From the sequence record OP172789: DNA of 64,000 bases. The stretch is one strand, 5' to 3'. Under the pieces are notes generated by a model. It ran no database searches. It was not told where the DNA came from and saw only the letters and a list, made by a program, of their open reading frames with translations. This document shows, one piece after another, positions 7,188 to 64,000 of this stretch (position 1 is the first letter of the stretch; each line of letters opens with the position of its first letter). The position numbers and the translations under genes are program-made. The DNA is from Escherichia phage ECO71P1.

Positions 7188-7245
7188 AAATCACCTCTGC
7201 TTCAGTTCATAAAATGATTATAGTTGCTAGAAAAATAAAAGCAAA

Positions 7246-8328
7246 CTATTTTATGCCACCTGCGCGACGATTTATCATATCAAGTTGATTCTCAATATAA
7301 GGCATTACTACTGCTTCGACAAAAGCGGTCCATCCTTTCTTGCCTTCCCCTTTCCGGTGACAGTCGTGAGCGCAACCGAAAACGAATTCATGTTCAGCGC
7401 CAGGGATTGGGCCGCGAAAATAAGCGCCGTATGGGTCGCCGTTGGTGTGCTCTTCACCCCAAGGACAGATGATGCGGCATTTACCTGACATGTTTTCAAC
7501 CACATCGCCATCGGACCCTTCGCCCATCTTATTGCGCGCAAGGATTTGCTGGGCTATCTTATACCAAACAGCGTCATATTTGTATTCGTCAACGTCGATT
7601 TGAATTTCACGCTTTTGCGGCATAACGACGTGGAAACCGAAGGCTTGGCAAATCTCTTCGATTGTGTAGCGCAAAGAATAGTCTGCATGAACAAGTCGGC
7701 AGCGGAACGGGTCGCCGTTCTCATCGACATATTTATAGGGGCCGTCGTGAGTCACACGCTTATTGTTGATGCACCCAGGAACACGACCCACGCGTGTCAC
7801 ATCTTTAATCGTATTGTCGCCGCCCTTCTTGAGTACCATGTTTACGAAAGACCCAAGGAATGCTTTGAACTGAATAAGATGGTCAATCGGTTCTTTAAAG
7901 AAGTACCACAGCTGATGGTTGTTCGGTGAAGTCTCAACAATGACGGTGGGCTTCAGGCGCTCGAAAAAGAATTCCAAATCTAAATCGCCCTTTGACCCTT
8001 TACCGTGTCCGATGTCGTCGACCATCATCGCCATGCCATGACCGAAAGCCGATTCCGTGCGCCAGTATCGCATCTCGCCTGTCTTTGGGTTGGGAGACTT
8101 ACGCATTGAACTTATGCAGGCGTAACCGTTCTGATGTTGCATCAGCGGCTTGCCAAGCTTCCAAGGCTTAGGCCAGAAGCTGCTGTTAATCTTTTTGCCG
8201 CGCTCGTCGGTCTGCACCGTTGCTTCAGGCGCAAACACTGTCATGACGCGTTCATCTTCTGGAATGCCTCTTTGGAGTTCCGTCAAAAACTCTTCGATTA
8301 TTTTTGCTTCTTCTCTTAAACTAGCCAT
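7246..8328 (-). CDS. putative primase-like replication protein (AEP/prim-pol-like DxD motif plus C-terminal Cys/His cluster)
   Basis: MMVDDIGHG acidic motif, C-terminal CPWGEEH...GCAHDCH; GAAGGAAAG RBS; sits beside helicase gene. Confidence 0.4.
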   Translation of the reverse strand: MASLREEAKIIEEFLTELQRGIPEDERVMTVFAPEATVQTDERGKKINSSFWPKPWKLGKPLMQHQNGYACISSMRKSPNPKTGEMRYWRTESAFGHGMAMMVDDIGHGKGSKGDLDLEFFFERLKPTVIVETSPNNHQLWYFFKEPIDHLIQFKAFLGSFVNMVLKKGGDNTIKDVTRVGRVPGCINNKRVTHDGPYKYVDENGDPFRCRLVHADYSLRYTIEEICQAFGFHVVMPQKREIQIDVDEYKYDAVWYKIAQQILARNKMGEGSDGDVVENMSGKCRIICPWGEEHTNGDPYGAYFRGPIPGAEHEFVFGCAHDCHRKGEGKKGWTAFVEAVVMPYIENQLDMINRRAGGIK

Positions 8329-8488
8329 CTTTCTTTCCTTCGGTGATCAATACCTGCAGTATAATATTGAGTGATACAAAGTCAACAATATTTACCATTT
8401 AGTTCACAATTTCGATTTACTTTGCTTTATACTATATCTGCAATTATACTATCAGAAAATATTTCCGCACTAACAAAGGTCGCCTGAA
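8329..8488. promoter_or_regulatory. divergent intergenic region with three TGC-N-TATA(A/C)TAT boxes, candidate host-RNAP promoters
   Basis: Switch point between minus-strand and plus-strand gene blocks; repeated -10-like hexamers. Confidence 0.3.
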
Positions 8489-8815
8489 ATGAACGAAAAA
8501 GATACGAAGCAACGAGAACGTGCAACACACGTCGGCATCGTTGAGTCCTTCCTTAATACAAGACTGAATTCAAGTCTTACAATTATGCGATTCCTGGGTC
8601 AACCAGACAGAATCAAATTCATCTTTGCCGCAAATCCGGTATCGCTTTACATCCCTGTTGAATCCATGGCGTACCTGGTGCGCGACGAGCAAGGGTGGAA
8701 GATACCAAACACGACTGTTTTCTTCAGTCACGTTGACGGTGAGATGTTTGAACGAAAAGAAGATTGCCATTTTATTCCAGTATATCTGGACCTTGAAAGC
8801 GTAGTGGAGTTATAA
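8489..8815 (+). CDS. hypothetical protein
   Basis: 108 aa ORF, first gene of plus-strand block. Confidence 0.45.
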   Translation: MNEKDTKQRERATHVGIVESFLNTRLNSSLTIMRFLGQPDRIKFIFAANPVSLYIPVESMAYLVRDEQGWKIPNTTVFFSHVDGEMFERKEDCHFIPVYLDLESVVEL

Positions 8816-9999
8816 TGAACATTCCAGAATTTAATAATGAGCCAGTGATTCAGTTCAACGCGCAACAGATTGATGCCATCGAAAAGGCCGTTGCATGGTA
8901 CAAGCGATTGCAGGACGGTAAAACGACGAAGCGCGTGTTTTTCATCGCTGGCTATGCAGGAACAGGTAAAACCTCTATTGCGCGTGAGATTGTGCGCCGT
9001 TGTGTCGGTGAGTACGGTGCCATTTATATTGCGCCGACCGGAAAGGCAGCCAGCCGATTGAAGCAGAAAGGGTGTCGTGGCGCGAAGACACTTCACCAGT
9101 TCATCTATAACGTGCGCGGCGTAAATGACGACAATGAGCCAATATTTTCGAGAAAGTCAAAGCTGGACGAAAAGCCGCATCTTGTAGTCCTTGATGAAGC
9201 TTCAATGGTTGGCGAGTGGGATACAGAGCGCCTTCTTGATCACCGCATCCCTGTGCTGGCATTAGGCGACATTGGACAAGTCCCTCCGGTAAAAGCCGCC
9301 GCCTACTTTACTGAAGATGCCGTTGACGTACTGTTAACCGAAATCATGCGGCAAGGGAAAGAGTCCAACATAATCCGCGCTTCCTTCTTCGTGCGACAGG
9401 GCAACCGACTTCCTCCGCGTGAATACGATGACGTCAAGGTGTTGGCTGAATCGCCGCGCGTTACCGCACTGAAGAAATTCATGGGCGAAGATGATCAGAT
9501 TATTTGTTCATATAACAGCACCAAAGATAAATGGAATTCATTATTGCGGCAAGTGAGCGGACGTATAACGCCAATGCCAGGAATCGGTGAGAAAGTTATT
9601 TGCACATTCAACCAACACGGTCCAGGATTCTGTAATGGCGAGCAAGGGATTGTTATTAGTTATGAGCCAGTACCGGACTTTGAAAGGGATGAAGATGAGT
9701 CCAATGAAATAATGTATGTAAATTTGCGCTCGCTTACCGATGGCAAAGATATAAAGGTCAAGATAAATCCTCTTTCCTTCTCTACTGATCAGGAAGTGCG
9801 CAAAGAGGCTCAACGCGCTGTTGGAGGAATGGACTATGGCTATGTCATAACGGTGCACAAATCGCAAGGCAGCGAGTGGGATAATGTGTGCGTTCTGGAA
9901 GAAATCTTGCGCGGCGTTCCGTATGCCAAGATGATGTACACAGCCATCACCCGTGCTAAGAAGAATCTGACTGTGTACCGTGATTTGAAAGCGCGTTAA
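8815..9999 (+). CDS. Dda/RecD-like superfamily 1 DNA helicase
   Basis: Walker A GYAGTGKTS, Walker B VLDEASMV, C-terminal YVITVHKSQGSEWD motif. Confidence 0.75.
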   Translation: MNIPEFNNEPVIQFNAQQIDAIEKAVAWYKRLQDGKTTKRVFFIAGYAGTGKTSIAREIVRRCVGEYGAIYIAPTGKAASRLKQKGCRGAKTLHQFIYNVRGVNDDNEPIFSRKSKLDEKPHLVVLDEASMVGEWDTERLLDHRIPVLALGDIGQVPPVKAAAYFTEDAVDVLLTEIMRQGKESNIIRASFFVRQGNRLPPREYDDVKVLAESPRVTALKKFMGEDDQIICSYNSTKDKWNSLLRQVSGRITPMPGIGEKVICTFNQHGPGFCNGEQGIVISYEPVPDFERDEDESNEIMYVNLRSLTDGKDIKVKINPLSFSTDQEVRKEAQRAVGGMDYGYVITVHKSQGSEWDNVCVLEEILRGVPYAKMMYTAITRAKKNLTVYRDLKAR

Positions 10000-10152
10000 T
10001 GTTGACGTAAATTTACGAAAAATAAAACTGAAAATCAGTTTAATTAAAGTGGCATTGCCGCCAGAGTTTTTAGTTGCTACTGGCGGCGACTGAAGGCATA
10101 ATTAAGTTATCCCAAACGGGGAATATAAAATAAACTAATTTATTTAAGGACT

Positions 10153-10998
10153 GTGAATATGGCCGAAGCAATCAAAGTATTATCTAAAGAAGAAAAACAA
10201 GCAGCTGCAGCAGAACGTCGTCGCGTGGCTGAAGAAAAACGCCTGGCTAAAAAGAAAGAAGCCGAAGAAAAACGCCAGAAGCGTGAGCAGGAAAAACAAG
10301 CCAAGCGTGAAGAAGCTGCACTGAAACGCAAGCAGGCCGCTGATGAGAAAGCACAGAAACGTGCTGAAGAAGCAGCGAAGAAAGCCAAAGAGCGTGCAGA
10401 AAAAGCTGCTGCTAAGAAAGCAGAGCGTGAAGCCGCTAAAGCAGCAAAAGAAATCGAAAAGGCAAAGGCTAAAGAAGAAGCCAAGCGCCTGAAAGCTGAA
10501 CAAGCTGCTGCTAAGAAAGCAGAGCGTGATCAAGCCCGTGCTGCAGCGAAGGCCGAAAAAGAGAAGGCCAAAGAAGAAGCTAAAGCGAAACGCAAGGCAG
10601 AGCGTGAAGCTGCTAAGATTGCGGCTAAAGAAGCTGCAGAAAAGCAGAAAGAACAGCGTAAGAAAGAAGCTGAAGAACGTCGCAAAGCCATCGCAGAACG
10701 TAAGGCTGCTAAAAAGGCAAACGGTCAGCGTCGTGCAAAAGCAACCCACTTCATCTACACTGGCAATGGCCTGAGCCAGCCGCAAGAGCATTCCACCCGT
10801 GGACGCGTTCTGGCGGCGATCAAAGAAGGCGAAGTTGGCGTGGCGCAGTCTATCGATGAGCTGGGCGAAAAAGTTAAAGATCAACTGTTTGGCGCTTCCG
10901 TTCGCTCCTACCTGAGCAAGCTGGAAGAGATGGGCCACATCGAGTTTGTCGATGTTGAATCCAACGAAGATGCCGAAGACGGTGATCAAGCGGAATAA
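10153..10998 (+). CDS. Lys/Ala/Glu-rich charged repeat protein with C-terminal globular domain
   Basis: About 180 aa of KAE low-complexity repeats (AAKKAERE-type), then about 90 aa non-repetitive tail; AAGGA RBS. Confidence 0.6.
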   Translation: MNMAEAIKVLSKEEKQAAAAERRRVAEEKRLAKKKEAEEKRQKREQEKQAKREEAALKRKQAADEKAQKRAEEAAKKAKERAEKAAAKKAEREAAKAAKEIEKAKAKEEAKRLKAEQAAAKKAERDQARAAAKAEKEKAKEEAKAKRKAEREAAKIAAKEAAEKQKEQRKKEAEERRKAIAERKAAKKANGQRRAKATHFIYTGNGLSQPQEHSTRGRVLAAIKEGEVGVAQSIDELGEKVKDQLFGASVRSYLSKLEEMGHIEFVDVESNEDAEDGDQAE

Positions 10999-11025
10999 CC
11001 TTAGGACGGTTATGCAGCGGTAATT

Positions 11026-11052
11026 GACCCACACTTGTTGTGGGTCTTTTTT
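11026..11052 (+). terminator. rho-independent terminator
   Basis: GACCCACACTTGTTGTGGGTC hairpin followed by TTTTTT. Confidence 0.65.
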
Positions 11053-11130
11053 CATCTGTACTAAATAAAATGACTTGTTGCTGTAAAATAATTTAGCTAT
11101 TATACTTATCATATCACCCACAAAGGACAA

Positions 11131-12126
11131 ATGAACATGAAACAACCTGTAATGATTATCGGCGGCGGACTGGCAGGACTTATCACCGCTTGTCACTTCC
11201 CGAACTCTGTTGTGTACGAAGCAGGGGAACGAGCGCAACAGCACAAGGCGCTGCTACGCTTTCGCAGCGAAGAAGTAAGCCGTATTACCGGAATCCCTTT
11301 TAAGGCTGTGACAGTTGACAAGGCTGTGTATTTTCGCGGCCACTACTACCACGACCATTGCCCAATCAACCTTGCCAATATGTATTCCATGAAGGTCACC
11401 AATCAATTTGGCAGCCGTTCAATCATGAAGCTTAAGACTGCAACGCGTTATATTGCGCCTGATGACTTTTATGATCAGCTTGTCGACAAACTGGGTGACC
11501 GAATATTCTTTAATACTCCGGTTGATACTCTTTGCGGCTATAGCGAGACGCCAATCATCAACACGTCGCCGCTGCCAGTCATGATGAAGCTGGCTGGGAT
11601 TGATCAAAAGCTTGATTTCTCATTTGATAAAGCAAACATTCGTGTTTACCGCTTTAAGATTAAACGTAAGTGTGATTTGTATCAGACAATTTACTTCCCT
11701 GACTACTCCGTCAGAACTTACCGCGCATCAATTACTGGTGACACGCTTATCATTGAAACAATTCCTTTGGTCAGCGTGAGTGAAGCTGCAGTTGAAGCCG
11801 CTGGCGGCATCACTCGTTACCGTGACATGAAGCTGCGCGCAGAAGTCGACGAAGTGTTGACAGCCTTTGGCCTCTCATGGAGCGACATCGCTCTTGAAGA
11901 AGTTGAAAAGGTCGACCAGAAATATGGCAAGATTGTCGACATTCCGAAAGACTTGCGACACGCCCTACTCCTGCAGCTGACTATGGATTTGAACGTGTTC
12001 AGTGTCGGTCGATTTGCTACCTGGCGCAACATTTTGCTTGATGACGTTGCCCATGACCTTGTTGAAGTTGAAAAACTCATCAAAGCAAATAACTATCAAA
12101 AATTTGCTTATATTGCTAATAAATAA
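11131..12126 (+). CDS. FAD/NAD(P)-binding Rossmann-fold protein, function unknown
   Basis: N-terminal VMIIGGGLAGL dinucleotide-binding motif. Confidence 0.5.
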   Translation: MNMKQPVMIIGGGLAGLITACHFPNSVVYEAGERAQQHKALLRFRSEEVSRITGIPFKAVTVDKAVYFRGHYYHDHCPINLANMYSMKVTNQFGSRSIMKLKTATRYIAPDDFYDQLVDKLGDRIFFNTPVDTLCGYSETPIINTSPLPVMMKLAGIDQKLDFSFDKANIRVYRFKIKRKCDLYQTIYFPDYSVRTYRASITGDTLIIETIPLVSVSEAAVEAAGGITRYRDMKLRAEVDEVLTAFGLSWSDIALEEVEKVDQKYGKIVDIPKDLRHALLLQLTMDLNVFSVGRFATWRNILLDDVAHDLVEVEKLIKANNYQKFAYIANK

Positions 12127-12191
12127 TTTGCTTTCTGCTTCAATGGGCGTATACTTTAATCATTGAAGCAGAACTCATAGAGGAAACGAAA

Positions 12192-12638
12192 ATGAAACGA
12201 ATCACTGGAATCGCGCTTGCCGCTACTGCTATTCTCGGCACCATGTATATGGAAGCAACTGAAGCTGCCATCCGCACTTCCGATTCAGTCGCTGTTTACG
12301 ATTGCGAAGCGATGGACGGTAAGACCGCAGCAACGACTGGTGCGAAGATTACCACTTACATCGGTGTGAATGAGCAAGAAGGTCTGAATATTCAGATTCA
12401 GGGATTCACAGGGAAAGGTGCCAACCGTACTCCGTGGATGCAACGTTTCACTTTCGTCCAGCCTCGTTCAACTGGCGGCTTTATCAATCTGATTGGTGAA
12501 AACCGTTCTGGTGCAGAAATCTTTACATCAATGAGTTCTAATAATGAACCAAAGAAAAGTTTTCAGTTGCTTTATAACGCACAATTCGTTTATCATTGCA
12601 CCTTCTCTGGTGATCAGCAACTAGTGAATTACCGTTAA
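12192..12638 (+). CDS. secreted protein (signal peptide), function unknown
   Basis: MKRITGIALAATAILG hydrophobic leader; GAGGA RBS. Confidence 0.5.
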   Translation: MKRITGIALAATAILGTMYMEATEAAIRTSDSVAVYDCEAMDGKTAATTGAKITTYIGVNEQEGLNIQIQGFTGKGANRTPWMQRFTFVQPRSTGGFINLIGENRSGAEIFTSMSSNNEPKKSFQLLYNAQFVYHCTFSGDQQLVNYR

Positions 12639-12651
12639 TAGGACAATTAAA

Positions 12652-13425
12652 ATGAAAGTTGAATTAATTCGATACACCCAAGATGCACTTGACCTTTTGC
12701 TGGAAACAAAGAACACGCGCATGACTGGTAAGCCTGTCTCTGAGATGACGGAATCAGAGAAGCAAGAGCATTGGCGCTACATGCTTGATACAATCAAGTC
12801 ACCTTTTGACTTTGTGGACTATATCTTTGACATAACCGTTGTTTCAAAGAATATGACTCATCAGATGGTCCGAACACGCGCAGGCGCATATCAAGAACGC
12901 ACCAGTCGCGCTCAGGAATCTTCTGCATTTGATGCGATTCGCCCTAAAGCATTTGAGCACCCTGACGGCTCCACAAGCGAGCTTGGCGAGAAGTGGGATG
13001 ATGCGATGGCGACTATTGATGCCATATATCAAGAGCTTCGCGCGGCTGGCGCAGAGATTCAGGATGCGCGTGCCGTGTTGCCTTCTAATATGCAAACGCA
13101 TATCATGGCAAAGTTCAACTTGCGCACGCTGCAGCAGATGGCGTCAAACCGCTTGTGCACGCGCACTCAAGGCGAGTATCAAGAAGTATTCCGCGCAATG
13201 GTTGCGGAAGTCCTCAAGGTGCACCCGTGGGCTAATCCTTTGCTGCAGCCGCAATGCATCGGTATGGGTAAGTGTGCGTTTCCTCGTCACGGTAAAGCCC
13301 ATTGCCCTTGGTATCGTGATTGGATGGATACCACTGCACAGCAGGAAGAGTTGCGCATTCAGTTTTGGGATGCCGCGCCAATCACCAACAATCCAGTTGC
13401 TAAAGATGGAGTATCAAAAGGATGA
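12652..13425 (+). CDS. ThyX-like (flavin-dependent thymidylate synthase family) protein with variant signature
   Basis: HQMVRTRAGAYQERTSR resembles ThyX RHR-X7-S region but with RTR in place of RHR. Confidence 0.45.
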   Translation: MKVELIRYTQDALDLLLETKNTRMTGKPVSEMTESEKQEHWRYMLDTIKSPFDFVDYIFDITVVSKNMTHQMVRTRAGAYQERTSRAQESSAFDAIRPKAFEHPDGSTSELGEKWDDAMATIDAIYQELRAAGAEIQDARAVLPSNMQTHIMAKFNLRTLQQMASNRLCTRTQGEYQEVFRAMVAEVLKVHPWANPLLQPQCIGMGKCAFPRHGKAHCPWYRDWMDTTAQQEELRIQFWDAAPITNNPVAKDGVSKG

Positions 13426-14294
13426 GTTTTAAAAATAACCAAATCTTGAACGTATTCGACCTTGACGGAACTCTGTTTGATGACCGTTGGCGCTTAGACC
13501 GCATCAAGATTGCAGGTCCGTTGTCAGACTATGATGACTATCACAGCGGTATTGGTTATGATCAGTTCTATCCTCACATTGCAGCAGCAGTAGAGTCAGC
13601 ATCTCTTCGCGGTGAGGCGGTTGAATATTGGACTGCAAGGCCAGAAAAATACAGACAAGTGACTTTTGAACGTCTGGACAATGTTTTTCCTTTTGATGAA
13701 TTTACAATCAAGATGAGAGACTCTGGCGACAAACGTCCATCAACTATTATGAAATCTGAATGGCTATCGCACGCTTTGCGGCACGGCGATTATCGAATCA
13801 TCAATATATTCGACGACCGACAAGACGTACTCGCGCGGATGCAAGATGAAGCCTTGTATTATAATTCCGTTGCTCAAAATAAAATCGCTTTTACGTTTAA
13901 TCTTTGCAAGGCAGGTGAAGTGGTGCAACAATTAGCAATTGATCCAAGCGCAACGGGGCAAGAAGAGACTAAGGCTGTGGAAATTGAACAATCTCCGGCA
14001 ACCGCCGCCGATATTCTTGATGCGATGGCAGCAACCTTCCGTGAGCGCAACGCTGTCTATGGCGATAACGCTGTGATGGTAGGCCAGGTTATGCAGGTGC
14101 TTTTCCCTAATGGCGTAACGTTGAAAACGCCGGAAGACTACCACATGTGGCATCTGTTCGAGCTTAAGATTGTCAAGCTTACACGCTTTGCAATCAGCGG
14201 CCTGAAGCACGAAGACTCTATACACGACGATGGTGTTTACAGCGCCATGTGTGAACGTCTTGTCAACACCCATAATATTAATTTCAATAAATAG
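13422..14294 (+). CDS. HAD-superfamily phosphatase domain protein with extra C-terminal domain
   Basis: N-terminal VFDLDGTLFDD (DxDGT) motif; 290 aa. Confidence 0.5.
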   Translation: MSFKNNQILNVFDLDGTLFDDRWRLDRIKIAGPLSDYDDYHSGIGYDQFYPHIAAAVESASLRGEAVEYWTARPEKYRQVTFERLDNVFPFDEFTIKMRDSGDKRPSTIMKSEWLSHALRHGDYRIINIFDDRQDVLARMQDEALYYNSVAQNKIAFTFNLCKAGEVVQQLAIDPSATGQEETKAVEIEQSPATAADILDAMAATFRERNAVYGDNAVMVGQVMQVLFPNGVTLKTPEDYHMWHLFELKIVKLTRFAISGLKHEDSIHDDGVYSAMCERLVNTHNINFNK

Positions 14295-14359
14295 TTTACT
14301 TGTGCGTTTCGATGAGTTATATTTATCTCATCGAAACGAAGTCCAAAAAGGATAAATAA

Positions 14360-15043
14360 ATGAAAAAAGTAATTGTTGTAACTGGCTGCAATTCCGGTCT
14401 TGGTAAATCCATTTTTGACACCCTTGGCGCTTACGGTCACGAAGTTGTCGGTATTGATTTGGACAACGGTTATGACATCCGTAACGCGAAACAGATGAAA
14501 GAGCTTCTCTCTCAATACGACGTAGAGGGCTTGATCAACTGCGCTGGCGTCAACTCCAACAACTGGTTTGAAGACGTTAACTACGAAGAGTTTAATCGCG
14601 TTATGCACACCAACGCCTTCTCTTTCGTTAACACGACTCAGGCCGCGCTGAAAAGTCTTATTGACAACAAAGGTTTTGTGATCAACATCGTTTCCAACGC
14701 TGCGCATATTCCTATGACGTCCAGCTTGTGTTATAATGCTTCCAAGGCCGCTGCGCTTATGATTAGCAAGCAGATGGCTCACGAGCTTACGCCTAAATAC
14801 GGGATCACGGTCTTCTCTATTAGTCCTAACAAGTTGCGTGGCACTGGTATGTCTAAACAGATTGAAGATGCTGTTTGCGCGACTCGCGGCTGGACTCCTG
14901 AGTATGCTGCTGAATACCAGAAAAAGGCGTTGATGAATGGATTGGAGACTGAGCCGCAAGTAATTGCTGACTTCATTCGCCATATCTTAATTACGGGCGC
15001 ATGGCGCTTTATGTCTGGTACTGATATTCCATTTGGGAAATAA
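14360..15043 (+). CDS. short-chain dehydrogenase/reductase (SDR) family oxidoreductase
   Basis: VTGCNSGLGKS cofactor motif and YNASKAA catalytic YxxxK. Confidence 0.65.
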   Translation: MKKVIVVTGCNSGLGKSIFDTLGAYGHEVVGIDLDNGYDIRNAKQMKELLSQYDVEGLINCAGVNSNNWFEDVNYEEFNRVMHTNAFSFVNTTQAALKSLIDNKGFVINIVSNAAHIPMTSSLCYNASKAAALMISKQMAHELTPKYGITVFSISPNKLRGTGMSKQIEDAVCATRGWTPEYAAEYQKKALMNGLETEPQVIADFIRHILITGAWRFMSGTDIPFGK

Positions 15044-15046
15044 ATC

Positions 15047-15262
15047 ATGAACAAAGCCTGGGTAGCGGTAATCGGTTTAGTGCTTCTTGTTGTATTAGGA
15101 TACACAATCAAATTTGAAGTTCCAAATCCTGTTGAGCCTGACAAAAAGATTGTCGTTGAAGTCCCAGGCGCTAAAGGTGAATTACCAAAACCTAAATTTG
15201 AAGTTGTCACACCCGCTCCTGAAAAGCAACAGGACGAAGACAACACAGTAATTAATCAATAA
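15047..15262 (+). CDS. small membrane-anchored protein
   Basis: N-terminal VAVIGLVLLVVLGY hydrophobic segment; 71 aa. Confidence 0.4.
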   Translation: MNKAWVAVIGLVLLVVLGYTIKFEVPNPVEPDKKIVVEVPGAKGELPKPKFEVVTPAPEKQQDEDNTVINQ

Positions 15263-15282
15263 TATTTAATTAAGGAAACAAA

Positions 15283-15834
15283 ATGCCACACTTTAAAATT
15301 GAACAAATCGCCCTGTCAATTCCAGATGCTCAGCGTGCACAGGATTTTCTGGCTAAAATCGGCCTGACAGAATGGTTCCATGATCATGTTGTTGCTACTG
15401 GTCGCGTATTTGAAAATGACGAGTTTAAAGGTCGTCGCGACGATTGCACCAACGAAGCTGACTTGCGATTCAACTATCAGGCTGGCAACGGCACCGATGG
15501 CGGCGCTGGTAAGCCTCTTGAGCTTGAAATCCTTGACTACACAATGGGTTGCAACTGGATCAACGAAAACATCGACATGCTTGATGCGCACGATAATCAG
15601 GTCAGCCATCTTGGCATGCATGTGACTGCCGCTGAACTTGCTGAATGGCGTAAGTTCTTTAAAGAAGAAGGCATTCAGGTTGCGCAGGAAGTCGTAACTG
15701 ACTCTCACACCAACCCAAATATTGCTGGTCAGCGTCGTTACAACTATGTGATCTTTGATACGCGTGAAATCATCGGTGTCGACCTTAAGTTCATTGTGCG
15801 GTTGAATCAAGACGGTACTCCGTACACTGCATAA
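15283..15834 (+). CDS. hypothetical protein, possibly glyoxalase/VOC-like fold
   Basis: 183 aa; weak resemblance only; AAGGAAA RBS. Confidence 0.35.
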   Translation: MPHFKIEQIALSIPDAQRAQDFLAKIGLTEWFHDHVVATGRVFENDEFKGRRDDCTNEADLRFNYQAGNGTDGGAGKPLELEILDYTMGCNWINENIDMLDAHDNQVSHLGMHVTAAELAEWRKFFKEEGIQVAQEVVTDSHTNPNIAGQRRYNYVIFDTREIIGVDLKFIVRLNQDGTPYTA

Positions 15835-15849
15835 CGAATCGTGAATCTG

Positions 15850-15875
15850 TGGCCGTCCTAATGGGCGGCCTTTTT
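15850..15875 (+). terminator. rho-independent terminator
   Basis: GGCCGTCCTAATGGGCGGCC hairpin followed by TTTTT. Confidence 0.65.
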
Positions 15876-15888
15876 GTAGGAGGCCAAT

Positions 15889-16431
15889 GTGTTATTTCTT
15901 CCTTATGACTTCGAAACAACCGGATTAACCGTGCACCCGAAAGCGCCGCTTGGGATGCAGCCGCGCCCTATTGAATTTGCAGGCCTGTTGACGGACGGCA
16001 AAGAGATTCTTGAAACGTTCGAGTTCATAATCAACCCTGAAATCGTGATTGAAGAAATCATCACAAAGATTACCGGATTAACAAATGAAGACCTTGAGTG
16101 CAATCCGCCATTCATCAATTTTGTTCCGCAGCTAAAAGAAATCTTCAAGAAGACTGATGCCACTATCGCGCACAACCATGCGTTCGATAAGAACATTCTT
16201 GATTATGCACTACAGCGCGAAGGACTTACACTTGATGATGTTAATTTCCCAGAAATAAACATCTGTACAGTTGAGCAAACCTTGCCTATTTTTGGCCGAA
16301 GAGTTAAGCTTCAAGAGCTGTATGAATTATATTTCGGAAAATATGAACAGAAGCACCGTGCATTAGACGACGTAATATTACTGCACAAAGTCTGCCAACA
16401 AATTGGCGTATATGACATCTGGAGTAAATAA
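15889..16431 (+). CDS. DnaQ-like 3'-5' proofreading exonuclease
   Basis: Exo motifs DFETTG, HNHAFD, HRALDD; GTG start after AGGAGG. Confidence 0.8.
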   Translation: MLFLPYDFETTGLTVHPKAPLGMQPRPIEFAGLLTDGKEILETFEFIINPEIVIEEIITKITGLTNEDLECNPPFINFVPQLKEIFKKTDATIAHNHAFDKNILDYALQREGLTLDDVNFPEINICTVEQTLPIFGRRVKLQELYELYFGKYEQKHRALDDVILLHKVCQQIGVYDIWSK

Positions 16432-44542: not shown

Positions 44543-45682
44543 TTAGATACCAGTCATACGGACGACTGCGAAAGGACGCTTAAGCAGAACGCCTGCTGTT
44601 GCGTTTGCGTAGTCTTCAACGTAGCTCTTAGCACGTTTCTCAACGCCCAGAGTCATGAACTTAGTCTGAACCAGCTGGCTGAATACGGAACCATCATCGC
44701 TTGAGCCATCAATTGAGGAATCGATGTGATCAGCGTACAGATATGCCACGTTCAGGAAAGTCGGGTCACTGCCAAGTGCGCCGTTGAGTTCCGGTGCAGA
44801 TTTGATCTTCATCTTCGGATAAGTCTGGGTGATCCAGTCACGTACAGAAATACCGAAGTCGGTGGTGTTTGACAGCCAATCAATAGAGTTGGTCGGCAGC
44901 GCCAGAGTCATATCAACCTTCTCTGGATCAATCTGGTCCTGAGAGTTGACACGGATTTGACGAACCATCAAACGGATGTCTGCAGTCACCTGTTGGAAGG
45001 TCGCAGTAGCCCAGCCGGAAGTGGTGTTTGAAGTCATTGCCGCTGGCAGGTTTGGATCATTCAGGAAGCCGAACGTGCGGTTGTTCCCGTTATACCAACC
45101 ATAGAAGCCGATTGCGTTACGCATGATTTCCAGAGATACAGCAGCCTGCTGGCGCTTGGTCTCTGCAGAGTTCAGACGCATCGCAGACGCGCGGCCTTCT
45201 TCCAGCATGCCGACTGCCATGCCCATTTCACCGCGAACGATGGAACGGCGTTCAAAGTTCACGTTCCAGCTTGCCAGAGGAATAGAGGTGAAATCACCAT
45301 ATTCAACTGCGGTGCCAGCTGGTTCAACGATGCCCTGAACGATTTCTGCATCTTCCCACTGACCAACGGTGTCAATACCAACCAGCTCGTCAATTTTACG
45401 GGCAGCGGTCATGATTTTGACGAAGCCAGGCAGCCACTGTTGCAGGAACTGCAGCGGGGTCGGGATTGATGGCGTGGTCTGCGGCGCAGTAAATGCGGCG
45501 TCACCTACGCGGAAAGCGCCTGCACGGTTTAAGTGCTCAATCTGATCACGCACAATCGCGGAATCAAACACAATACCGATACGCGCAAGCTGGGAAACAG
45601 CCGCGTCGGTCACGGATTGCATATCAAAAGGGCGCACCTTGCTCGCTGGGAGGCGAGAGTGTGTTTGGCTAATGCGAGTCAT
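44543..45682 (-). CDS. putative major capsid protein
   Basis: 379 aa; position after scaffold gene; downstream hairpin. Confidence 0.45.
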
Positions 45683-45696
45683 TATTCACCTGCCTA

Positions 45697-46314
45697 TTAA
45701 CGAGTCAATTGTACAATGGTATAAGTGGAAGACTGGACGCTTGGGCCGGAAAGGGCAATAGTCGTCGGGTCAATCACAATACCGCCTGGGATGGCAACCA
45801 TGCCAGTTGGCAATGAGCCAGTATAGGCGATAATTGCACCAATAGGCAAGTTGTTCGGGTTGTTACCGCTGGAAATGCCTTTAGGTACATAAGCAAGCAG
45901 GTCGCCATAGTTAAGCGTCTGCGGACTGGTGCTTGGGTTGAATACTTCAACTACGAGGCCCGTGCACATATCATAGAACTCGCCTTCGCTATATTGAGGC
46001 AGAACCATGCTGGCACCCAAAGGACCAGTAGAGTTGCCATACAGCGCGTAACGCTTGCTATTGCCGAGGATGCCGTAGTAGTTAGTGCCGCCCAGCTCAA
46101 CTTCAAAGTCCTGCGCGCCCAAAGTTTTGGTTTGACCAGTACCCATTAAGGATACGTCAGTCTTAAAACCGAACACACGGCTGATGGCGTTTACGTTTGC
46201 GCCTTCGTTAGCGTTGGCAATTCGGCCTGGCTTCCCACGCTGTGGGCCGTCGCGAACGATGTCGCCAGGAAAGCCAGTTGTATATTGACGGCCTACACTA
46301 GTTTGGAAAGTCAT
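45697..46314 (-). CDS. hypothetical head protein (decoration or accessory)
   Basis: Start trimmed to MTFQTSVG to abut scaffold gene. Confidence 0.35.
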   Translation of the reverse strand: MTFQTSVGRQYTTGFPGDIVRDGPQRGKPGRIANANEGANVNAISRVFGFKTDVSLMGTGQTKTLGAQDFEVELGGTNYYGILGNSKRYALYGNSTGPLGASMVLPQYSEGEFYDMCTGLVVEVFNPSTSPQTLNYGDLLAYVPKGISSGNNPNNLPIGAIIAYTGSLPTGMVAIPGGIVIDPTTIALSGPSVQSSTYTIVQLTR

Positions 46315-46316
46315 GT

Positions 46317-47735
46317 TTATTCCCCTTTCAACCAAGCTTCAAATGCTTCGTCAGTTGCTGCAGAATCCGCAGCGGCCTTTTGTTTTGCGACTACACGCTG
46401 TTTTTGACCGTGTTCAACGCCGCGCAGATAATTATCCACCACGTCAAACTCAGCACCATCAACGCACTTCAAGCCTAACTTTTTAGCGCCATATTTCGCT
46501 ACGGACTTGGAGTCCATAGTTGCATGATCAAAGGCACCAACAACTTTAGACAGGCGCTGGTAGAGGCTATTCTTACGAGCAGAATCAGCGTAGAAAGCAG
46601 CAACTGCTGAATCAGATGCCATTGAGTGTTCCCCTTTTGCTGGACCTGGCGACGCTTTCGCCGCTTTTGTCGGTTTGTCATCTTTTTCGACCGAAGCCCC
46701 CTTTACGTTGCTGTTTTGCAGGCCGCTAACCACATCTTCAGCTTTGTCGCAAGGTGATACATCTTCAGCCTTGACTTCAACTTCTTCGTCTTTGACTTCG
46801 GCTTCAACTTCTTCTTCATCACCTACCGCGCCACCTTTAAGTTTTGCAATAAGTGCTTCGATTTGGCTGATCAGTTGCGGAAGCTCGCCGCCAGCGTGAG
46901 ATTCAGTTTCAACTTCAAACTTCTCTTCACCTTCTGGAGTCTCTTCAGCTTCTGCTTTAACTTCTGGATCAACCATCACTTCTTCACGTTCTTCGGTTGA
47001 ATCCTTCTCTTCTGCTTTCACTTCAACTTCGTCCTGATGAGCAGCTTCGGTGCTCTCTTCATTCAGAAATTGTTCGAGCGCAGGGATCAGTGATTTCAGC
47101 TGTTCAACAGCATTATCACGCGCTTTACCTTTTAACGGTTTTGGCATGTCTAAATCCTCGTTGGATGGTGTTACAGTCGTCAAACAAAGATGGTCAAAGC
47201 AACGACCATCCAGCACCCGTGCACCTGGTACTCGACCAACGTCCACGAGAGCAATGTGGTTGCCGCGAAGAGTTGTCTGTACCACTTCATACGGCTGCCC
47301 GTCAAACTCTCCAGACTGTATGATGAATTCACAGTCATAGCCCAAAGACAAGTCAACCTTTCCAGAATCGATGGCCTTCTTCAGACGACGGCTAAAAACT
47401 TTAAGGTCGCCGCGCATCCATGGCTTGTCATAATAAACATTGCCAGTTAGAACGCCATCAACGCCATACTCTTCGGGTGCTGTGTTATCCTCATCACCTT
47501 CGAATCCAGAAAGCATTTCGTGATTGTCGATGAAAGGGATATTTTTGAATGAATCTATCGCTTCGGGGTCTTTCACCGCTGACTCTGGGCGATAAACTTT
47601 TACGATGCGATTCGGATCACCATCAAGTCCAACCTGACCTGCAGAATAATCAAAAATGCCAAATGACGAAATGGGACAACCCACAATCGTCAAGAATCCA
47701 TTTTTGTCAATTTCGCGTGCCGTTTGCATTCGCAT
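46317..47735 (-). CDS. prohead scaffold/protease-like protein with long acidic Glu-rich linker
   Basis: 472 aa, central EEVEAEVKDEEVEVKAED-type acidic region; GAGGGTGG RBS. Confidence 0.45.
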   Translation of the reverse strand: MRMQTAREIDKNGFLTIVGCPISSFGIFDYSAGQVGLDGDPNRIVKVYRPESAVKDPEAIDSFKNIPFIDNHEMLSGFEGDEDNTAPEEYGVDGVLTGNVYYDKPWMRGDLKVFSRRLKKAIDSGKVDLSLGYDCEFIIQSGEFDGQPYEVVQTTLRGNHIALVDVGRVPGARVLDGRCFDHLCLTTVTPSNEDLDMPKPLKGKARDNAVEQLKSLIPALEQFLNEESTEAAHQDEVEVKAEEKDSTEEREEVMVDPEVKAEAEETPEGEEKFEVETESHAGGELPQLISQIEALIAKLKGGAVGDEEEVEAEVKDEEVEVKAEDVSPCDKAEDVVSGLQNSNVKGASVEKDDKPTKAAKASPGPAKGEHSMASDSAVAAFYADSARKNSLYQRLSKVVGAFDHATMDSKSVAKYGAKKLGLKCVDGAEFDVVDNYLRGVEHGQKQRVVAKQKAAADSAATDEAFEAWLKGE

Positions 47736-60015: not shown

Positions 60016-60605
60016 GCCTGCCGCGCAGGAGTGTACTGAAAATTTACTGTGGGTACAAAATAGTACGGTACTGTCTGGGACTTTTTCTTTGAAAAGTTAG
60101 TGGACCAAATGTGTCGTATTTTGATTAGTGTACTGCAAATTTCATCAAGTACCAAAACGCACCAAAAGACCCATGCCCTAAAAACCACACGAACGCAATA
60201 ATCAATCGCCGTTACAGTTTCCAGCGTTACAATTCGAAAGAGAATGATTCGACGCATAATAACATGAAGCATAATGATTCAAAAGCGAATGATTGCGTGT
60301 AGGATAATATCGGTGGGGATTATTCTAGATGTCGGTAATTTCGCATGCGTACTATTTTCGGGCGAAGGGTCGGCATATTTCTCGTTTTAGTTCGGAACGA
60401 AGGGAAAGTTTTGCGCCTTTATAAAACAACGACTTACGCGACCCTCCCTAACGGTCCGATATAGGTGTCTATATAAAACAACGACTTACGCGATGTTCTC
60501 CATTTAACGTAATACCTGTTATGCGAACTAAGGCGCATCTAGACGAAGATTATGCGACGACGAAGGGAAGGATAAAGGAGTTTTCTCGTAGGAGCGCATC
60601 GAGAT

Positions 60606-60637
60606 AGGGACGAAGAAAAGCCGCGACTAAGCGCGGC
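60606..60637 (-). terminator. rho-independent terminator downstream of the 60658-60948 gene
   Basis: GCCGCG-ACTAA-GCGCGGC hairpin; TTTTCTT follows on minus strand. Confidence 0.5.
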
Positions 60638-60657
60638 CTATTAGTAACGGAAGGGTA

Positions 60658-60948
60658 TTATAAGGAGGCGATTTTAAAATAAGTTACTTCGCCGCCGAGT
60701 TGCGGTACAGCGATATATTCGCCGCCGATTTCGGTAATCGTATAGACGAAGCCGTTAATCGTTACGCGGTAGGATACTACGTCCTCGTCGCGATACTTGT
60801 AAAGGTCGAGGAAGTTGATCGGTTCATAAATAGACTCGATAGTTGCGTCTACGTTAGAGAGATAAACGCTCTCTAAAGTCTCGCCAAATACGTTAGAGTT
60901 TTCGGAAGTCTCGACGCGAGCGGAACGGATAGCGGCTAAAGTAATCAT
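60658..60948 (-). CDS. small acidic protein, island paralogue 1
   Basis: 96 aa; paralogous to 61758-62042 product; AGGAG RBS; CG-rich codon usage. Confidence 0.5.
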   Translation of the reverse strand: MITLAAIRSARVETSENSNVFGETLESVYLSNVDATIESIYEPINFLDLYKYRDEDVVSYRVTINGFVYTITEIGGEYIAVPQLGGEVTYFKIASL

Positions 60949-61054
60949 AATATTCTCCTAGTTAGTCGGGAGGGTAGCGACCTATTCGCTACCTCACCCC
61001 TCTCGATATAAATAAGTATAATCTTAGTGTACGGATAAGTAAAGCACTTTTTTT
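60949..61054 (-). promoter_or_regulatory. promoter-leader cassette copy 1 (TTTACT / TATACT sigma70-like boxes, leader stem-loop, anti-SD CTCCC)
   Basis: Aligns with copies at 61537-61618 and 61654-61757. Confidence 0.5.
60973..60993 (-). ncRNA. 5' leader stem-loop (transcript GGTAGCG-AATAGGT-CGCTACC)
   Basis: Covaries with 61713-61733 stem while loop AATAGGT is conserved. Confidence 0.45.
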
Positions 61055-61063
61055 CGTTTTTTT

Positions 61064-61216
61064 CTATTTATTTAAAGCGCGTCTTCCAAGTTCGACGACC
61101 CAAGCGGCGGCATCTTCCGCCTTATTAAATTCGTATAGATGCTTCTTATCTTCGAAGACGTAAAATAAAATACGTCCGAACTTATTAGCCTTCGCGCTTA
61201 ACTCGATAGTTTTCAT
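61064..61216 (-). CDS. small hypothetical protein (50 aa)
   Basis: Hand translation MKTIELSAKANKFGRILFYVFEDKKHLYEFNKAEDAAAWVVELGRRALNK; AAGGAG RBS. Confidence 0.3.
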   Translation of the reverse strand: MKTIELSAKANKFGRILFYVFEDKKHLYEFNKAEDAAAWVVELGRRALNK

Positions 61217-61233
61217 CTTCTACTCCTTTTTCG

Positions 61234-61536
61234 TTATTTTGCGATAAAATATTTATAAGCCTTATCGCCTTCTACGTCGATATACTCGACGATAATTAAC
61301 GCTTCGCCGCGCGGCGTAACCGACTCGATAAGGGTAACGGCTTCGTCGTCGGTCTTCGCGAAGCGGATGGCGCTACGTTCGGCGTACTTTATATCGTCGA
61401 AGGATAATCCGACGAAGGCGACGGCGCGCGCTTTAATAATTCCCTTTTCGAGTTCCGCGTTAACGGCGGCGATAAGAGAGCGAACGGTTAAGCGGTCTTC
61501 GTCGTAAGTAAGAATAGAAGAAATTAAAGTAGCCAT
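61234..61536 (-). CDS. small acidic hypothetical protein
   Basis: 100 aa; AGGAG RBS; leader shares cassette with the paralogue genes. Confidence 0.45.
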   Translation of the reverse strand: MATLISSILTYDEDRLTVRSLIAAVNAELEKGIIKARAVAFVGLSFDDIKYAERSAIRFAKTDDEAVTLIESVTPRGEALIIVEYIDVEGDKAYKYFIAK

Positions 61537-61618
61537 AATAAAACTCCTAATGCTAGTAAGGGAGAACGCCTCCCGTCTCGATATAAATAAGTATACGCGA
61601 GTGTACGAAGAAGTAAAG
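61537..61618 (-). promoter_or_regulatory. promoter-leader cassette copy 2 (drives the 61234-61536 gene)
   Basis: Imperfect inverted repeat with copy 3 around a 35-bp spacer. Confidence 0.45.
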
Positions 61619-61653
61619 AAAAAAGATAAAATAATTTATCGCATTTTTATCGA

Positions 61654-61757
61654 AAAAGTGCTTTACTTTTTTCTACACTATATTATAATGTACTCATATC
61701 GGGACGGGATGAGTTAACGAATAGGTCGTTAACGCCTCTCCCAACTAGGAGTTTAAA
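61654..61757 (+). promoter_or_regulatory. promoter-leader cassette copy 3 (TTTACT-N17-TATTATAAT, leader stem-loop, anti-SD, AGGAG)
   Basis: Strong -10 at 61681-61689; hairpin 61713-61733; SD 61747-61751. Confidence 0.5.
61713..61733 (+). ncRNA. 5' leader stem-loop (GTTAACG-AATAGGT-CGTTAAC)
   Basis: Compensatory stem changes relative to the 60973-60993 hairpin. Confidence 0.45.
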
Positions 61758-62042
61758 ATGGCTATTCTTAACGTTTCTTCTATCCGTAACGCTATCGTCG
61801 AGAACTACGGCGTAAAACAAAATTTATCCGAAGTCTACGCCGCGAACGTAGACCAAACTATCGAAGCGGGTGGGGTAACGGTCGCCGAGGCTTTTAAACT
61901 TTACGCGGCGTTACCGGAATCGGACCGCGAAGCCTTCGAAGTAAACGTTAACGGATACTTCTTCGAAGCGGTCGAAATCGGTAATATTTTACTCGTTATG
62001 GGCGAAGAAGAATTTGAGACCTTCTCCCTCGTCGAAGCGTAA
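61758..62042 (+). CDS. small acidic protein, island paralogue 2
   Basis: 94 aa; shared MxxLxxxSIRxAxVExxxxxxxLxxVYxxNVDxTIE pattern with paralogue 1. Confidence 0.5.
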   Translation: MAILNVSSIRNAIVENYGVKQNLSEVYAANVDQTIEAGGVTVAEAFKLYAALPESDREAFEVNVNGYFFEAVEIGNILLVMGEEEFETFSLVEA

Positions 62043-62122
62043 GAGAGGATTTTTAGAGCGTCGTGCGCGGCGCTTTAATAAAATTCTTTCGCGCCTAGCG
62101 CCCTAACAAATAGGAGTTTATT

Positions 62123-62749
62123 ATGGTTAGCTTAAATCGCTTCTCGACTAGCGGCGACGTTATCGCAACTAAGACCGCCGACCTCGTTGCATTCTATAAT
62201 GCAAATTCCGGCTCAAAACCGATTAAGAAGTTTGCGGACCGCCGGACCGCCGAGACTCGCGTAATCGCGTTAATCGAGTCCTTAAACGCGCTCGATGAGC
62301 CGTCCAACGAATCGCCCATCCCCGACGCGAAGCCGCGCGAGGAAGTGCCCAGCGATGTAAAAACGCATAAGGCGCGTGCGGTCGTTAAAAAGGCCGAGCC
62401 GACTCAGGAAGAACTCGACGCGATGACCGACGAAGAGTATGAAGCCTTCGTTAAAAGCGGCCTAAACGATAGTGCAAATTGCGTAGTGCAAAATGGAACT
62501 CCTTCTCATCGCCGTTCGAATAGCGAAGGTATTGCAAAAAGTTGGGATAACAAGGAAGTAGCGCAAAAGCGTCTCACCCGTAACGCCGTTATGGTCGAGG
62601 GTGTAGGAGAGTTCAAATCGGTCCGCGTAGCGTTCGCCGCGCTGGGCTTACCGGATAGCAAGCACATTCGCTTCCGTATGAAGCTCAAGGAAGCTGGGCG
62701 CTTGAACTTTGAGTTCGGCAACAAGTCCTACACCTTCCAGATCATCTAA
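62123..62749 (+). CDS. hypothetical protein (contains two in-frame copies of the TAGTGCAAA repeat)
   Basis: 208 aa; AGGAG RBS; CG-rich codon usage. Confidence 0.45.
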   Translation: MVSLNRFSTSGDVIATKTADLVAFYNANSGSKPIKKFADRRTAETRVIALIESLNALDEPSNESPIPDAKPREEVPSDVKTHKARAVVKKAEPTQEELDAMTDEEYEAFVKSGLNDSANCVVQNGTPSHRRSNSEGIAKSWDNKEVAQKRLTRNAVMVEGVGEFKSVRVAFAALGLPDSKHIRFRMKLKEAGRLNFEFGNKSYTFQII

Positions 62750-62755
62750 TCGAAT

Positions 62756-62778
62756 GGCGGCCCTTCGGGGTCGCTTTT
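62756..62778 (+). terminator. rho-independent terminator with UUCG tetraloop
   Basis: GCGGCCC-TTCG-GGGTCGC followed by TTTTC. Confidence 0.55.
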
Positions 62779-62799
62779 CATAGTGCAAATTGGTGGCTT

Positions 62800-63063
62800 A
62801 TGAATACGCTTATTCTCATCGCTACGTTGTCCATCGGAAGTGGTCGCACCTTATCCCTTTATGATCATAGTGCAAATTGCGCTTACCCAACGCGAGTTGC
62901 GGCGATAGTTAATAGTGCAAATCGAATGCTATTCGAGACTTGTTGGCGGGTTGATAACGAGAAAGGGCGCATCGTCTTAGGTTATAGTGCAAATCTGCTG
63001 GTGGAGTCGTTCGACTGGACGGCGGAAGGTCGTAAATTGTTACGTAAAGTGACTAAAAGATGA
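62800..63063 (+). CDS. questionable ORF spanning three repeat copies
   Basis: 87 aa ORF whose SAN tripeptides are encoded by the repeat; may be non-coding. Confidence 0.2.
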   Translation: MNTLILIATLSIGSGRTLSLYDHSANCAYPTRVAAIVNSANRMLFETCWRVDNEKGRIVLGYSANLLVESFDWTAEGRKLLRKVTKR

Positions 63064-63124
63064 CTTATAATAATACACTTTCTAACGCGTTTATGGTTGT
63101 AACCTTCCCCGTCGTATTACCGAT

Positions 63125-63165
63125 GGCCCTAGAAGTGGAGAAAATGTGTTCTAGGGCCGTTTTAT
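63125..63165. terminator. hairpin between converging transcription units
   Basis: GGCCCTAG ... CTAGGGCC 8-bp perfect stem, followed by GTTTTA. Confidence 0.4.
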
Positions 63166-63177
63166 AGTGCAAATTGG

Positions 63178-63650
63178 CTAGTGGCGGGAGAATTGCTCAC
63201 CCTCTTTGGCAGCCTCTCCAAAATCCTTGTAGAAATCGTCCATGGAACGGCCCATTTTACTATTGCCGTTTTCATCAATCATCGTGATGCCGTAGATGAT
63301 ATTCAGTTCACGAATGGCATTAAGCTTGGCTGAAGCCGCGACTTCTGGATCACGCACAAGCTTCACTAAATTGTGGATGGAACTCTTTACGCTCCACAAT
63401 TCCTTCAATGGCATCTCTTCCATACGCTTCTTGTAGCGCATCTTGTAGTACGGATTGCGTTGCGTGCACAGGATTCGCTGGCCAGTGTAGTTATCGGTCG
63501 CAACCTCCATGCCAAATACTAGTGCAAAAGCTGCGCGCATGTCATGGCCCTGAATAACAAGGTCAATGAACTCATCGAATAATGCCTGATTATGCTCTGC
63601 AAATCGTGGGTCTTCAAAGTCTTCAGGCATTGCTACATAATCTTGACTCA
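63178..63650 (-). CDS. hypothetical protein (start set to MSQDYVAMPEDF; start codon lies inside a repeat copy)
   Basis: ORF track extends via TTG through the repeat array; ATG start favoured. Confidence 0.4.
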
Positions 63651-64000
63651 TAGTGCAAATCCCATAGTGCAAATTAATAGTGTGAATTATACAATGATTG
63701 AACATTATATTCAAGTGCAGATTGATGTTCAAATTGGCTGTAAACGTACACAAATCATAGTGCTAAATGAATATCGGACCGTGGTGCGTGGTGTACTGTT
63801 TGATACGTATAAAAGAAATCCATCCCTTTCGCCGCTTGTTATGCAAATCAATGACTTAGCCGCTGCTGGCTGGTTGAAGCGTATCATGACGTATCATCCG
63901 TATTGCCGCAAGTCTTTGTTTTTACTTATATCTTACGGATAATACGTATAAATATAAGTTTAGTATAAGTATGAGGATGTAGAAAAAATTAATTTAAATT

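Follow-up and report, generated by a model that had tools for sequence, protein, structure and literature searches.

A block of about 2 kb in the terminal repeat of Escherichia phage ECO71P1 has been almost completely purged of the dinucleotide step CA:TG, and this purge is actively maintained at the DNA level. The block lies in a stretch of 64,000 nucleotides from sequence record OP172789 (hereafter the window). The phage belongs to Wifcevirus, a genus of myoviruses of E. coli and Shigella whose members include WFC, WFH, ECML-117 and Mansfield and which is distantly related to Pbunavirus of Pseudomonas (PMC11990801). The segment matches 28 phage records, all of them Wifcevirus, with 92-96% identity, and comparable blocks occur in two further genera of enterobacterial phages. 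As a tentative explanation, to which we assign a probability of roughly 40%, we propose that the block is a pre-early module like that of phage T5, the DNA of which works unprotected and has evolved to be maximally featureless.

A block purged of the CA:TG step

Composition was expressed as symmetrised dinucleotide rho, with both strands combined. Between 60300 and 62785, rho is 2.02 for CG, 1.23 for TA and 0.34 for CA/TG, compared to 1.12, 0.68 and 1.15 in the whole window. The corresponding values for the core (60300-62200) are 2.19, 1.30 and 0.24, against 1.08, 0.65 and 1.19 elsewhere, with no change in the other seven dinucleotide classes and a G+C content of 44% versus 46%. In 590 other 1-kb windows CA/TG rho was 1.19 ± 0.07 with a minimum of 0.96, while 1-kb windows of the block gave 0.16-0.27 (z = −14); the block is the sole compositionally deviant segment in the 64 kb. 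At its outer edge, near 60300, CA+TG drops from about 30 to 1-10 per 200 bp. The inner edge is graded: CA+TG recovers over 62200-62750, within the gene for a 208-amino-acid protein, of which the 5' third is purged and the 3' part is almost normal. A preliminary description of this DNA had proposed a compositionally distinct island rich in CG and TA, and the dinucleotide and codon statistics support this more strongly than had been claimed. It had missed both the terminal-repeat context and the identity of CA/TG as the avoided step. The block and its immediate surroundings contain the following features (coordinates in the window; strand in brackets, with a dot where none applies; ORF, open reading frame; pI, isoelectric point).

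60165..64000 (.) one copy of the direct terminal repeat (DTR), mapped onto the window from the PhageTerm DTR of Mansfield
60165..60299 (.) 135 bp adjoining end B of the DTR, with ordinary CA/TG and three AATGATT repeats (composition, sequence)
60300..62300 (.) core of the CA/TG-purged block (dinucleotide statistics); the purge fades over 62300-62750
60658..60948 (-) ORF for an acidic protein of 96 amino acids, pI 4.2; paralogue of the 94-amino-acid protein
61015..61043 (-) promoter-like site TTTACT-17-TATACT of the 96-amino-acid gene (consensus match)
61064..61216 (-) ORF for a basic protein of 50 amino acids, in some strains only
61234..61536 (-) ORF for an acidic protein of 100 amino acids, pI 4.8, without His, Gln, Cys or Trp
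61590..61617 (-) promoter-like site TTTACT-16-TATACT of the 100-amino-acid gene (consensus match)
61662..61689 (+) promoter-like site TTTACT-16-TATAAT of the 94- and 208-amino-acid genes (consensus match)
61758..62042 (+) ORF for an acidic protein of 94 amino acids, pI 4.05, Wifcevirus only
62123..62749 (+) basic protein of 208 amino acids (phrog_4730), a Pbunavirus-like core gene (profile match, conservation)

The block primarily avoids the CA:TG step and does not favour CG as such. Four-codon families have almost no NCA but still plenty of NCC and NCT, and because these codons persist, selection in favour of CG was rejected. The shift towards NCG codons reported in the preliminary description is real, but its cause is the avoidance of CA/TG. 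GTG accounts for none of 37 valine codons and CTG for none of 16 CTN codons, and TTG is absent compared to 16 TTA. On the sense strand both CA and TG are depleted at codon positions 1-2 and 2-3 and across the 3-1 junction between codons, where CA is reduced from 92 to 7.5 per 1000 and TG from 127 to 28. Compared to the remaining phage genes, those of the block use His, Gln, Cys, Trp and Met 2-6 times less often. Each of the eight trinucleotides with CA or TG is lowered, fairly evenly, to 0.03-0.38-fold, with CAG/CTG at 0.03-fold; as a by-product CTAG is enriched 11-fold, and TCGA and TAGA are likewise raised. The purge is strand-symmetric (27 CA, 29 TG), and coding parts, with a CA+TG count of 1-6 in 200 bp, are purged harder than non-coding parts, which have 6-11. 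It extends to the promoters: the -35 hexamer of all three promoter-like sites is TTTACT instead of TTGACA, and these boxes are not transcribed. The same is seen in the Serratia phage MyoSmar (see below), where the block promoters carry TTTACT and TAGACT and the promoter just beyond the block TTGACT. Since codon phases, amino acids, both strands and untranscribed -35 boxes are all affected, the data favour double-stranded DNA, and not tRNA usage or mRNA, as the target of selection.

Three other candidates were rejected. Selection at the tRNA or codon level is ruled out by the purge of codon junctions and -35 boxes, general palindrome avoidance by the enrichment of TCGA, CTAG, CGCG and TATA, and avoidance of RNA polymerase pause (Y-G) sites by the enrichment of CG. 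A search for motifs enriched beyond a dinucleotide model returned only codon-driven words (CGAAG, TCGAA) and no shared binding motif. We found no prior description of the purge in the literature searched, which covers the terminal repeat of about 3.7 kb and the unexplained restriction resistance of these phages.

Position, conservation and maintenance of the purge

The DTR is about 3.8 kb long. Its boundaries in Mansfield map to position 60165 (end B) and to about 64011 (end A), so that end A is predicted about 11 bp past the end of the window, which does not hold the second DTR copy. For WFC and WFH a terminal repeat of about 3.7 kb is described in the published literature. The block lies inside the DTR, 135 bp from end B, which is the predicted physical genome end in the other DTR copy; the remaining 1.2 kb towards end A is of normal composition.

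The same arrangement recurs outside the genus. Myosmarvirus (Serratia phages SMP, MyoSmar and MTx) has a block of 1.8-2 kb with a CA/TG rho of 0.12-0.25 and a CG rho of 2.0-2.6, which in MyoSmar occupies positions 150-2000 of an annotated 3559-bp terminal repeat and begins 150 bp from the physical end. In Kylevirus (Pantoea phage Kyle), which has an exact terminal duplication of 3603 bp, the block is weaker (rho 0.42), extends from about 1600 to 3400 and lies 200 bp from the inner boundary of the duplication. In Wifcevirus, MyoSmar and Kyle, the block therefore begins 135-200 bp from a predicted end and extends for about 2 kb. Only two proteins are common to the genera, the 208-amino-acid protein and a terminase-like protein. 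The product of MyoSmar gene gp001 is a second copy of the 208-amino-acid family and is encoded entirely within the block; the other block genes of Myosmarvirus and Kylevirus encode different small acidic proteins.

In a set of 74 viral contigs encoding the 208-amino-acid family, the purge is found in these three enterobacterial groups only. About 60 relatives from other hosts have a minimum CA/TG rho per 1 kb of 0.6-1.16, and a purged block is absent from the Pbunavirus PA_LZ7 and the Xanthomonas phage XcP1. The latter two show mild intergenic CA/TG dips of 200-400 bp (XcP1 4400-4800; PA_LZ7 6000-6200 and 7100-7300) near primase and terminase-like genes, which may be merely AT-rich regulatory DNA.

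Within Wifcevirus the block is found in 28 of 28 matching records, which is not the patchy presence that would be expected of a horizontally acquired island. Its gene content varies: ECML-117 has an additional 69-amino-acid gene in the block (1865-2074), a 104-amino-acid gene replaces the 94-amino-acid gene in WFC and Bas98 (2781-3099), and the 50-amino-acid gene is often missing. Every variant cassette is still purged.

Maintenance of the purge is evident from polymorphism. In eight Wifcevirus strains, minor alleles were compared with the expectation for random mutation. In the block, 29 minor alleles create CA/TG compared to 81 expected, and 50 remove it compared to 13.5 expected. The flanks are on expectation: the left one shows 59 gains (62 expected) and the right one 40 (41 expected). 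The ratio of transitions to transversions is about 1 in the block, compared to 1.4-2.2 in the flanks. Under a strict alignment filter, 11 gains were observed versus 19 expected, and the ratio was about 3 for the flanks and again about 1 for the block. In Myosmarvirus, 257 of 1795 block positions differ between MyoSmar and MTx, and still both phages retain 61 CA+TG; as many substitutions placed at random would leave 121 ± 7.5, and the lowest of 300 trials had 101. Two thirds of the residual CA/TG are common to both phages. A recent foreign insert drifting towards phage composition is excluded because gains of CA/TG are few, the MyoSmar and MTx counts are constant, variant cassettes are purged and the inner edge is graded.

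Towards end A, the DTR contains a repeat array, a Chi site and two further ORFs.

62466..63769 (+) array of ATAGTGCAAAT repeats in a single orientation, beginning where the purge ends
62800..63063 (+) ORF of 87 amino acids, normal composition
62997..63004 (+) Chi site GCTGGTGG, reading for RecBCD entering at end A
63178..63651 (-) protein of 157 amino acids (phrog_4783), annotated as small terminase in Mansfield

The Chi site at 62997 is kept in six of six other strains examined, and each of the three genera has Chi between block and end A, once in Wifcevirus, four times in MyoSmar (2107-2447), five times in SMP (45615-46793) and nine times in Kyle (255-1972, 9 copies in 1.7 kb). SMP has no Chi elsewhere in 50 kb. 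In all three genera the orientation is that which stops RecBCD entering at end A.

Candidate explanations for the purge

In the explanation that we favour, the block would be the first DNA to act in the cell. End B would enter first, like the left terminal repeat of T5, and host RNA polymerase would transcribe the genes for the small acidic proteins and the 208-amino-acid protein from the CA/TG-free TTTACT promoters. The products, as putative anti-restriction or takeover factors, would then shield the remaining genome and take over the host. Until that point about 2 kb would be naked, and evasion of host defence would have driven this DNA to present the fewest recognisable motifs. Loss of CA/TG takes away about 40% of all 5-bp motifs; Chi is among the motifs lost, as are many type I half-sites and the type III sites of enterobacteria (CAGCAG, CAGAG and CACAG).

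The model for this proposal is the first-step-transfer region of T5 and BF23 (Tequintavirus). Both systems combine a long direct terminal repeat with small genes of no known function in divergent units with host promoters, which in Wifcevirus are predicted, and a repeat-rich stretch beyond the genes. Both withstand restriction of types I, II and III although their DNA is unmodified. In T5 sensitivity depends on sites in the region (PMC10644984), and in Wifcevirus it may do so. T5-like phages are restricted only via sites in the first-step-transfer repeat (PMC10644984). The composition of the repeat is unlike that of the neighbouring DNA in T5 as well (CG rho 1.34 versus 0.76). In addition, the T5 repeat (1-10219), compared with the 5.7 kb at 10300-16000, has a GC-dinucleotide rho of 1.58 versus 1.06 and lowered AG/CT and GA/TC. 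The single-orientation array that starts where the purge ends recalls the injection-stop region of T5 and may be its counterpart, and the restriction of the purge to enterobacterial genera among the 74 related loci would fit a defence encountered in these hosts. Differences are also apparent. Only about 2 kb of the 3.8-kb repeat is affected in Wifcevirus, and searches of Pfam, PHROG, PADLOC and PDB gave no A1, A2 or dmp homologues among the block proteins. Two-step injection as in T5 is hypothetical for these myoviruses. Many T5-like phages resist EcoP1 despite sites in the first-step-transfer DNA, but Wifcevirus is sensitive.

A second parallel is provided by Autographiviridae, in which the leading DNA carries anti-defence genes, such as gene 0.3 (Ocr) of T7, and motifs in this region decide on restriction; in Murciavirus only leading-region motifs matter (PMC12455610). 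The block proteins have no similarity to Ocr. The acidic block proteins match the DNA mimics Ocr and ArdA in being small and strongly acidic (94-100 amino acids, pI 4.05-4.8) and presumably in early expression, but no sequence or fold similarity to these mimics was detected. Size and acidity would fit DNA mimicry or other anti-defence roles as a resemblance. As in restriction-site avoidance (Rusinov et al. 2018, cited in PMC8594841), motifs are lost under selection and fewer enzymes cut. The classical form concerns particular sites of 4-6 bp genome-wide; here a single dinucleotide is reduced about fivefold in a 2-kb segment, at a cost to amino acids and promoters.

Published restriction phenotypes are consistent with a protective role. 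Wifcevirus resists EcoKI, EcoCFT_I, EcoRI, EcoRV and EcoCFT_II but is very sensitive to EcoP1_I, and it has "no known genome protection mechanism" (PMC11990801); replication is reportedly unusually fast. EcoCFT_II is resisted although Wifcevirus site numbers are similar (PMC11990801). We read the EcoCFT_II site as CACAG, the sole 5-mer that matches the published counts for T7 (81) and lambda (83). Sites for all six systems are present in the genome; the window contains 16 EcoRI, 7 EcoRV, 3 EcoKI, 3 EcoAI-type, 91 CACAG and 77 AGACC sites. Of the sites of the six systems, only AGACC (EcoP1) occurs in the block, three times forward and twice in reverse, and the Bas98 repeat has the same site pattern. 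All six published systems (6/6) would fit the rule that sites in the block determine sensitivity, in a correlation with one positive. The block is the likely seat of restriction resistance in Wifcevirus. More generally, 271 of 618 REBASE specificities cut the block, compared to 345 ± 14 for other 1.9-kb segments, and the coverage of 5-mers is 0.74 versus 0.91, with a quarter of all 5-mers removed. If no single factor reads the CA/TG step, the block would be the most extreme 'stealth' leading DNA known to us. In that case the purge should be taken into account when the escape of therapeutic phages from restriction is to be predicted. The block offers a recodable handle, as synonymous changes can add or remove CA/TG or restriction sites.

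Several observations weigh against a general stealth module. The restriction correlation comprises six systems with one positive, and the other five sites are absent from the whole repeat and not from the block alone. With about 21% of type II specificities eliminated, the benefit of the purge is modest. In the MyoSmar block (150-2000), GAATTC occurs five times with 0.85 expected, apparently from Glu-Phe codon pairs, which shows that some restriction sites escape the purge. Neither the first-step-transfer repeat of T5 (CA/TG rho 0.93) nor the leading left end of T7, where CA/TG is normal, is purged, and the block proteins do not resemble known anti-restriction proteins. The orientation of Chi raises the possibility that end A is the exposed end and that the block lies behind a Chi shield. 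Alternatively, end A could be a trailing free end at which Chi helps RecA to join the two repeats. Finally, the even depletion of all CA/TG trinucleotides, 3-30-fold, suggests one reader of the dinucleotide itself.

Such a reader is the alternative that we consider next, and we regard it as possible but doubtful. A single dedicated factor would read the CA:TG step, and the block would be exempt since it offers no target. Candidates are a frequent-cutting phage nuclease directed against host DNA, a DNA coat made by the block, and a host factor or sensor of Enterobacterales. In a form that appears equally doubtful, a CA:TG-targeting factor that has so far gone unrecognised would be active in the first minutes of Enterobacterales infection, with the 2-kb block as the only DNA invisible to it. 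Besides the even depletion of tri- and tetranucleotides containing CA/TG in two genera, the strength of the purge, which alters amino-acid usage and promoter hexamers, and its restriction to enterobacterial phages speak for one reader. For T5, how first-step DNA survives the degradation of host DNA is an open question (PMC10644984). Against it, the block proteins have no detected nuclease or DNA-binding domain, and the rest of the genome, with normal CA/TG, would need separate protection. We know of no enzyme with specificity for the CA/TG step. Dinucleotides are the unit under pressure in the evasion of ZAP through CpG and of RNase L through UpA by vertebrate RNA viruses, and in repeat-induced point mutation (RIP) of fungi. 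These cases differ from the block in sign, since CpG and TpA are enriched here, and in kingdom, and for the block a reader of the dinucleotide is hypothetical. There is nevertheless a real chance that the purge reflects a new recognition principle. Should a single reader exist, self and non-self would be discriminated by dinucleotide content in ordinary bases, which would amount to a novel principle in the recognition between phage and host and would explain the restriction resistance of Wifcevirus without DNA modification.

A context-specific bias of mutation or repair that turns CA/TG into CG and TA in part of the repeat, possibly while ends are processed or the repeat copies recombine, appears improbable. 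The block does lie in duplicated DNA, with a genome end on one side and Chi sites on the other, CA/TG is lost among strains more often than expected (50 versus 13.5), and the CpA-to-TpA change in repeats by fungal RIP provides a precedent (PMC2621366). However, two transitions, A to G and C to T, would be required, both in CA context only, and G+C content is unchanged. The change is limited to one part of the repeat, the block has too few rather than too many transitions, and two thirds of the residual CA/TG are shared by MyoSmar and MTx.

Slightly less probable still is selection on early mRNAs, by an RNase or toxin cutting UG or CA or through the removal of NUG starts in sense and antisense. 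The harder purge of coding parts and the presence of UG in every bacterial start codon would fit, but untranscribed -35 boxes and promoter spacers are purged as well, the Wifcevirus purge fades midway along one transcript, and in MyoSmar CA (23) and TG (32) are about equally depleted even though all genes lie on one strand.

The horizontally acquired or recently duplicated module favoured by the preliminary description, in the form of recent acquisition from a donor of block-like composition, is very improbable: the block is indeed the one deviant segment, with small proteins that have no relatives outside the genus, but it occupies a fixed DTR place in all 28 records, recurs in three genera, has a graded edge and shows no amelioration. 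To our knowledge, no genome has a CG rho of about 2 together with a CA/TG rho of about 0.2, and neither the ORF list nor a repeat search of the window revealed an integrase or flanking repeats at the block.

Genes and further signals of the terminal repeat

The five ORFs of the block stand as first listed, but the set is not a uniform accessory island, since the 208-amino-acid protein is a Pbunavirus-like core gene and the 50-amino-acid ORF varies between strains. The proposed paralogy of the two divergent proteins of about 95 amino acids is confirmed: the 96- and 94-amino-acid proteins share 32% identity (E 1e-6), and their promoter and leader are also duplicated. AGGAG sites precede the block ORFs, as described before, and the three sigma-70-like sites, identified by consensus matches, would give divergent units closed by predicted terminators.

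The small proteins had been described as lacking a recognisable function, and they indeed match no family in Pfam, PHROGs or PADLOC. PDB sequence searches with the 100-amino-acid protein and a profile of the 208-amino-acid family gave no match. A word search of 5.8 billion proteins and HMMER searches of 1.8 billion representatives recovered only Wifcevirus copies as relatives of the small proteins; the remaining matches were of low complexity, apart from one weak match of 103 amino acids. An AlphaFold2 model of the 208-amino-acid protein, based on an alignment of near-identical homologues only, was of low confidence (predicted local distance difference test score, pLDDT, 41). Family and profile searches of the block proteins detected no nuclease or DNA-binding domain. 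An early accessory, host-takeover or anti-defence role of the small acidic proteins, as suggested in the preliminary description, is plausible.

Three minor features flank these genes.

60417-60441, 60469-60493 (+) 25-nt direct repeat CT(T/A)TATAAAACAACGACTTACGCGA, present twice in the ORF-free left part of the block (repeat search)
60618..60639 (-) terminator-like hairpin 3' of the 96-amino-acid gene; a terminator is annotated here in Mansfield and WFC
62756..62778 (+) hairpin 3' of the 208-amino-acid gene; a terminator is annotated here in WFC

Rfam and tRNA searches of the ORF-free part, including the 25-nt repeat, gave no RNA gene. Near this repeat, GAAGGGAA-like words occur in the 350 bp without ORFs that separate end B from the first gene. 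The 150 bp of MyoSmar that correspond to the 135 bp adjoining end B consist of CCAC-rich repeats, and in both phages these end-adjoining repeats are possible terminase or end-recognition sites.

The array towards end A is built on (A)TAGTGCAAAT, which occurs in about 12 copies in one orientation on the + strand between 62197 and 63770, and also at 60131, and is confined to the terminal repeat. Several copies precede Chi or Chi-like octamers, and other Wifcevirus strains have 6-7 exact copies of the array repeat. These repeats could be terminase-binding, injection-stop or regulatory sites.

Elsewhere in the window, the second most deviant stretch is located at 9500-12500, with a strong AT skew (0.41 at 10001-11000) and a GC-dinucleotide rho of up to about 1.55.

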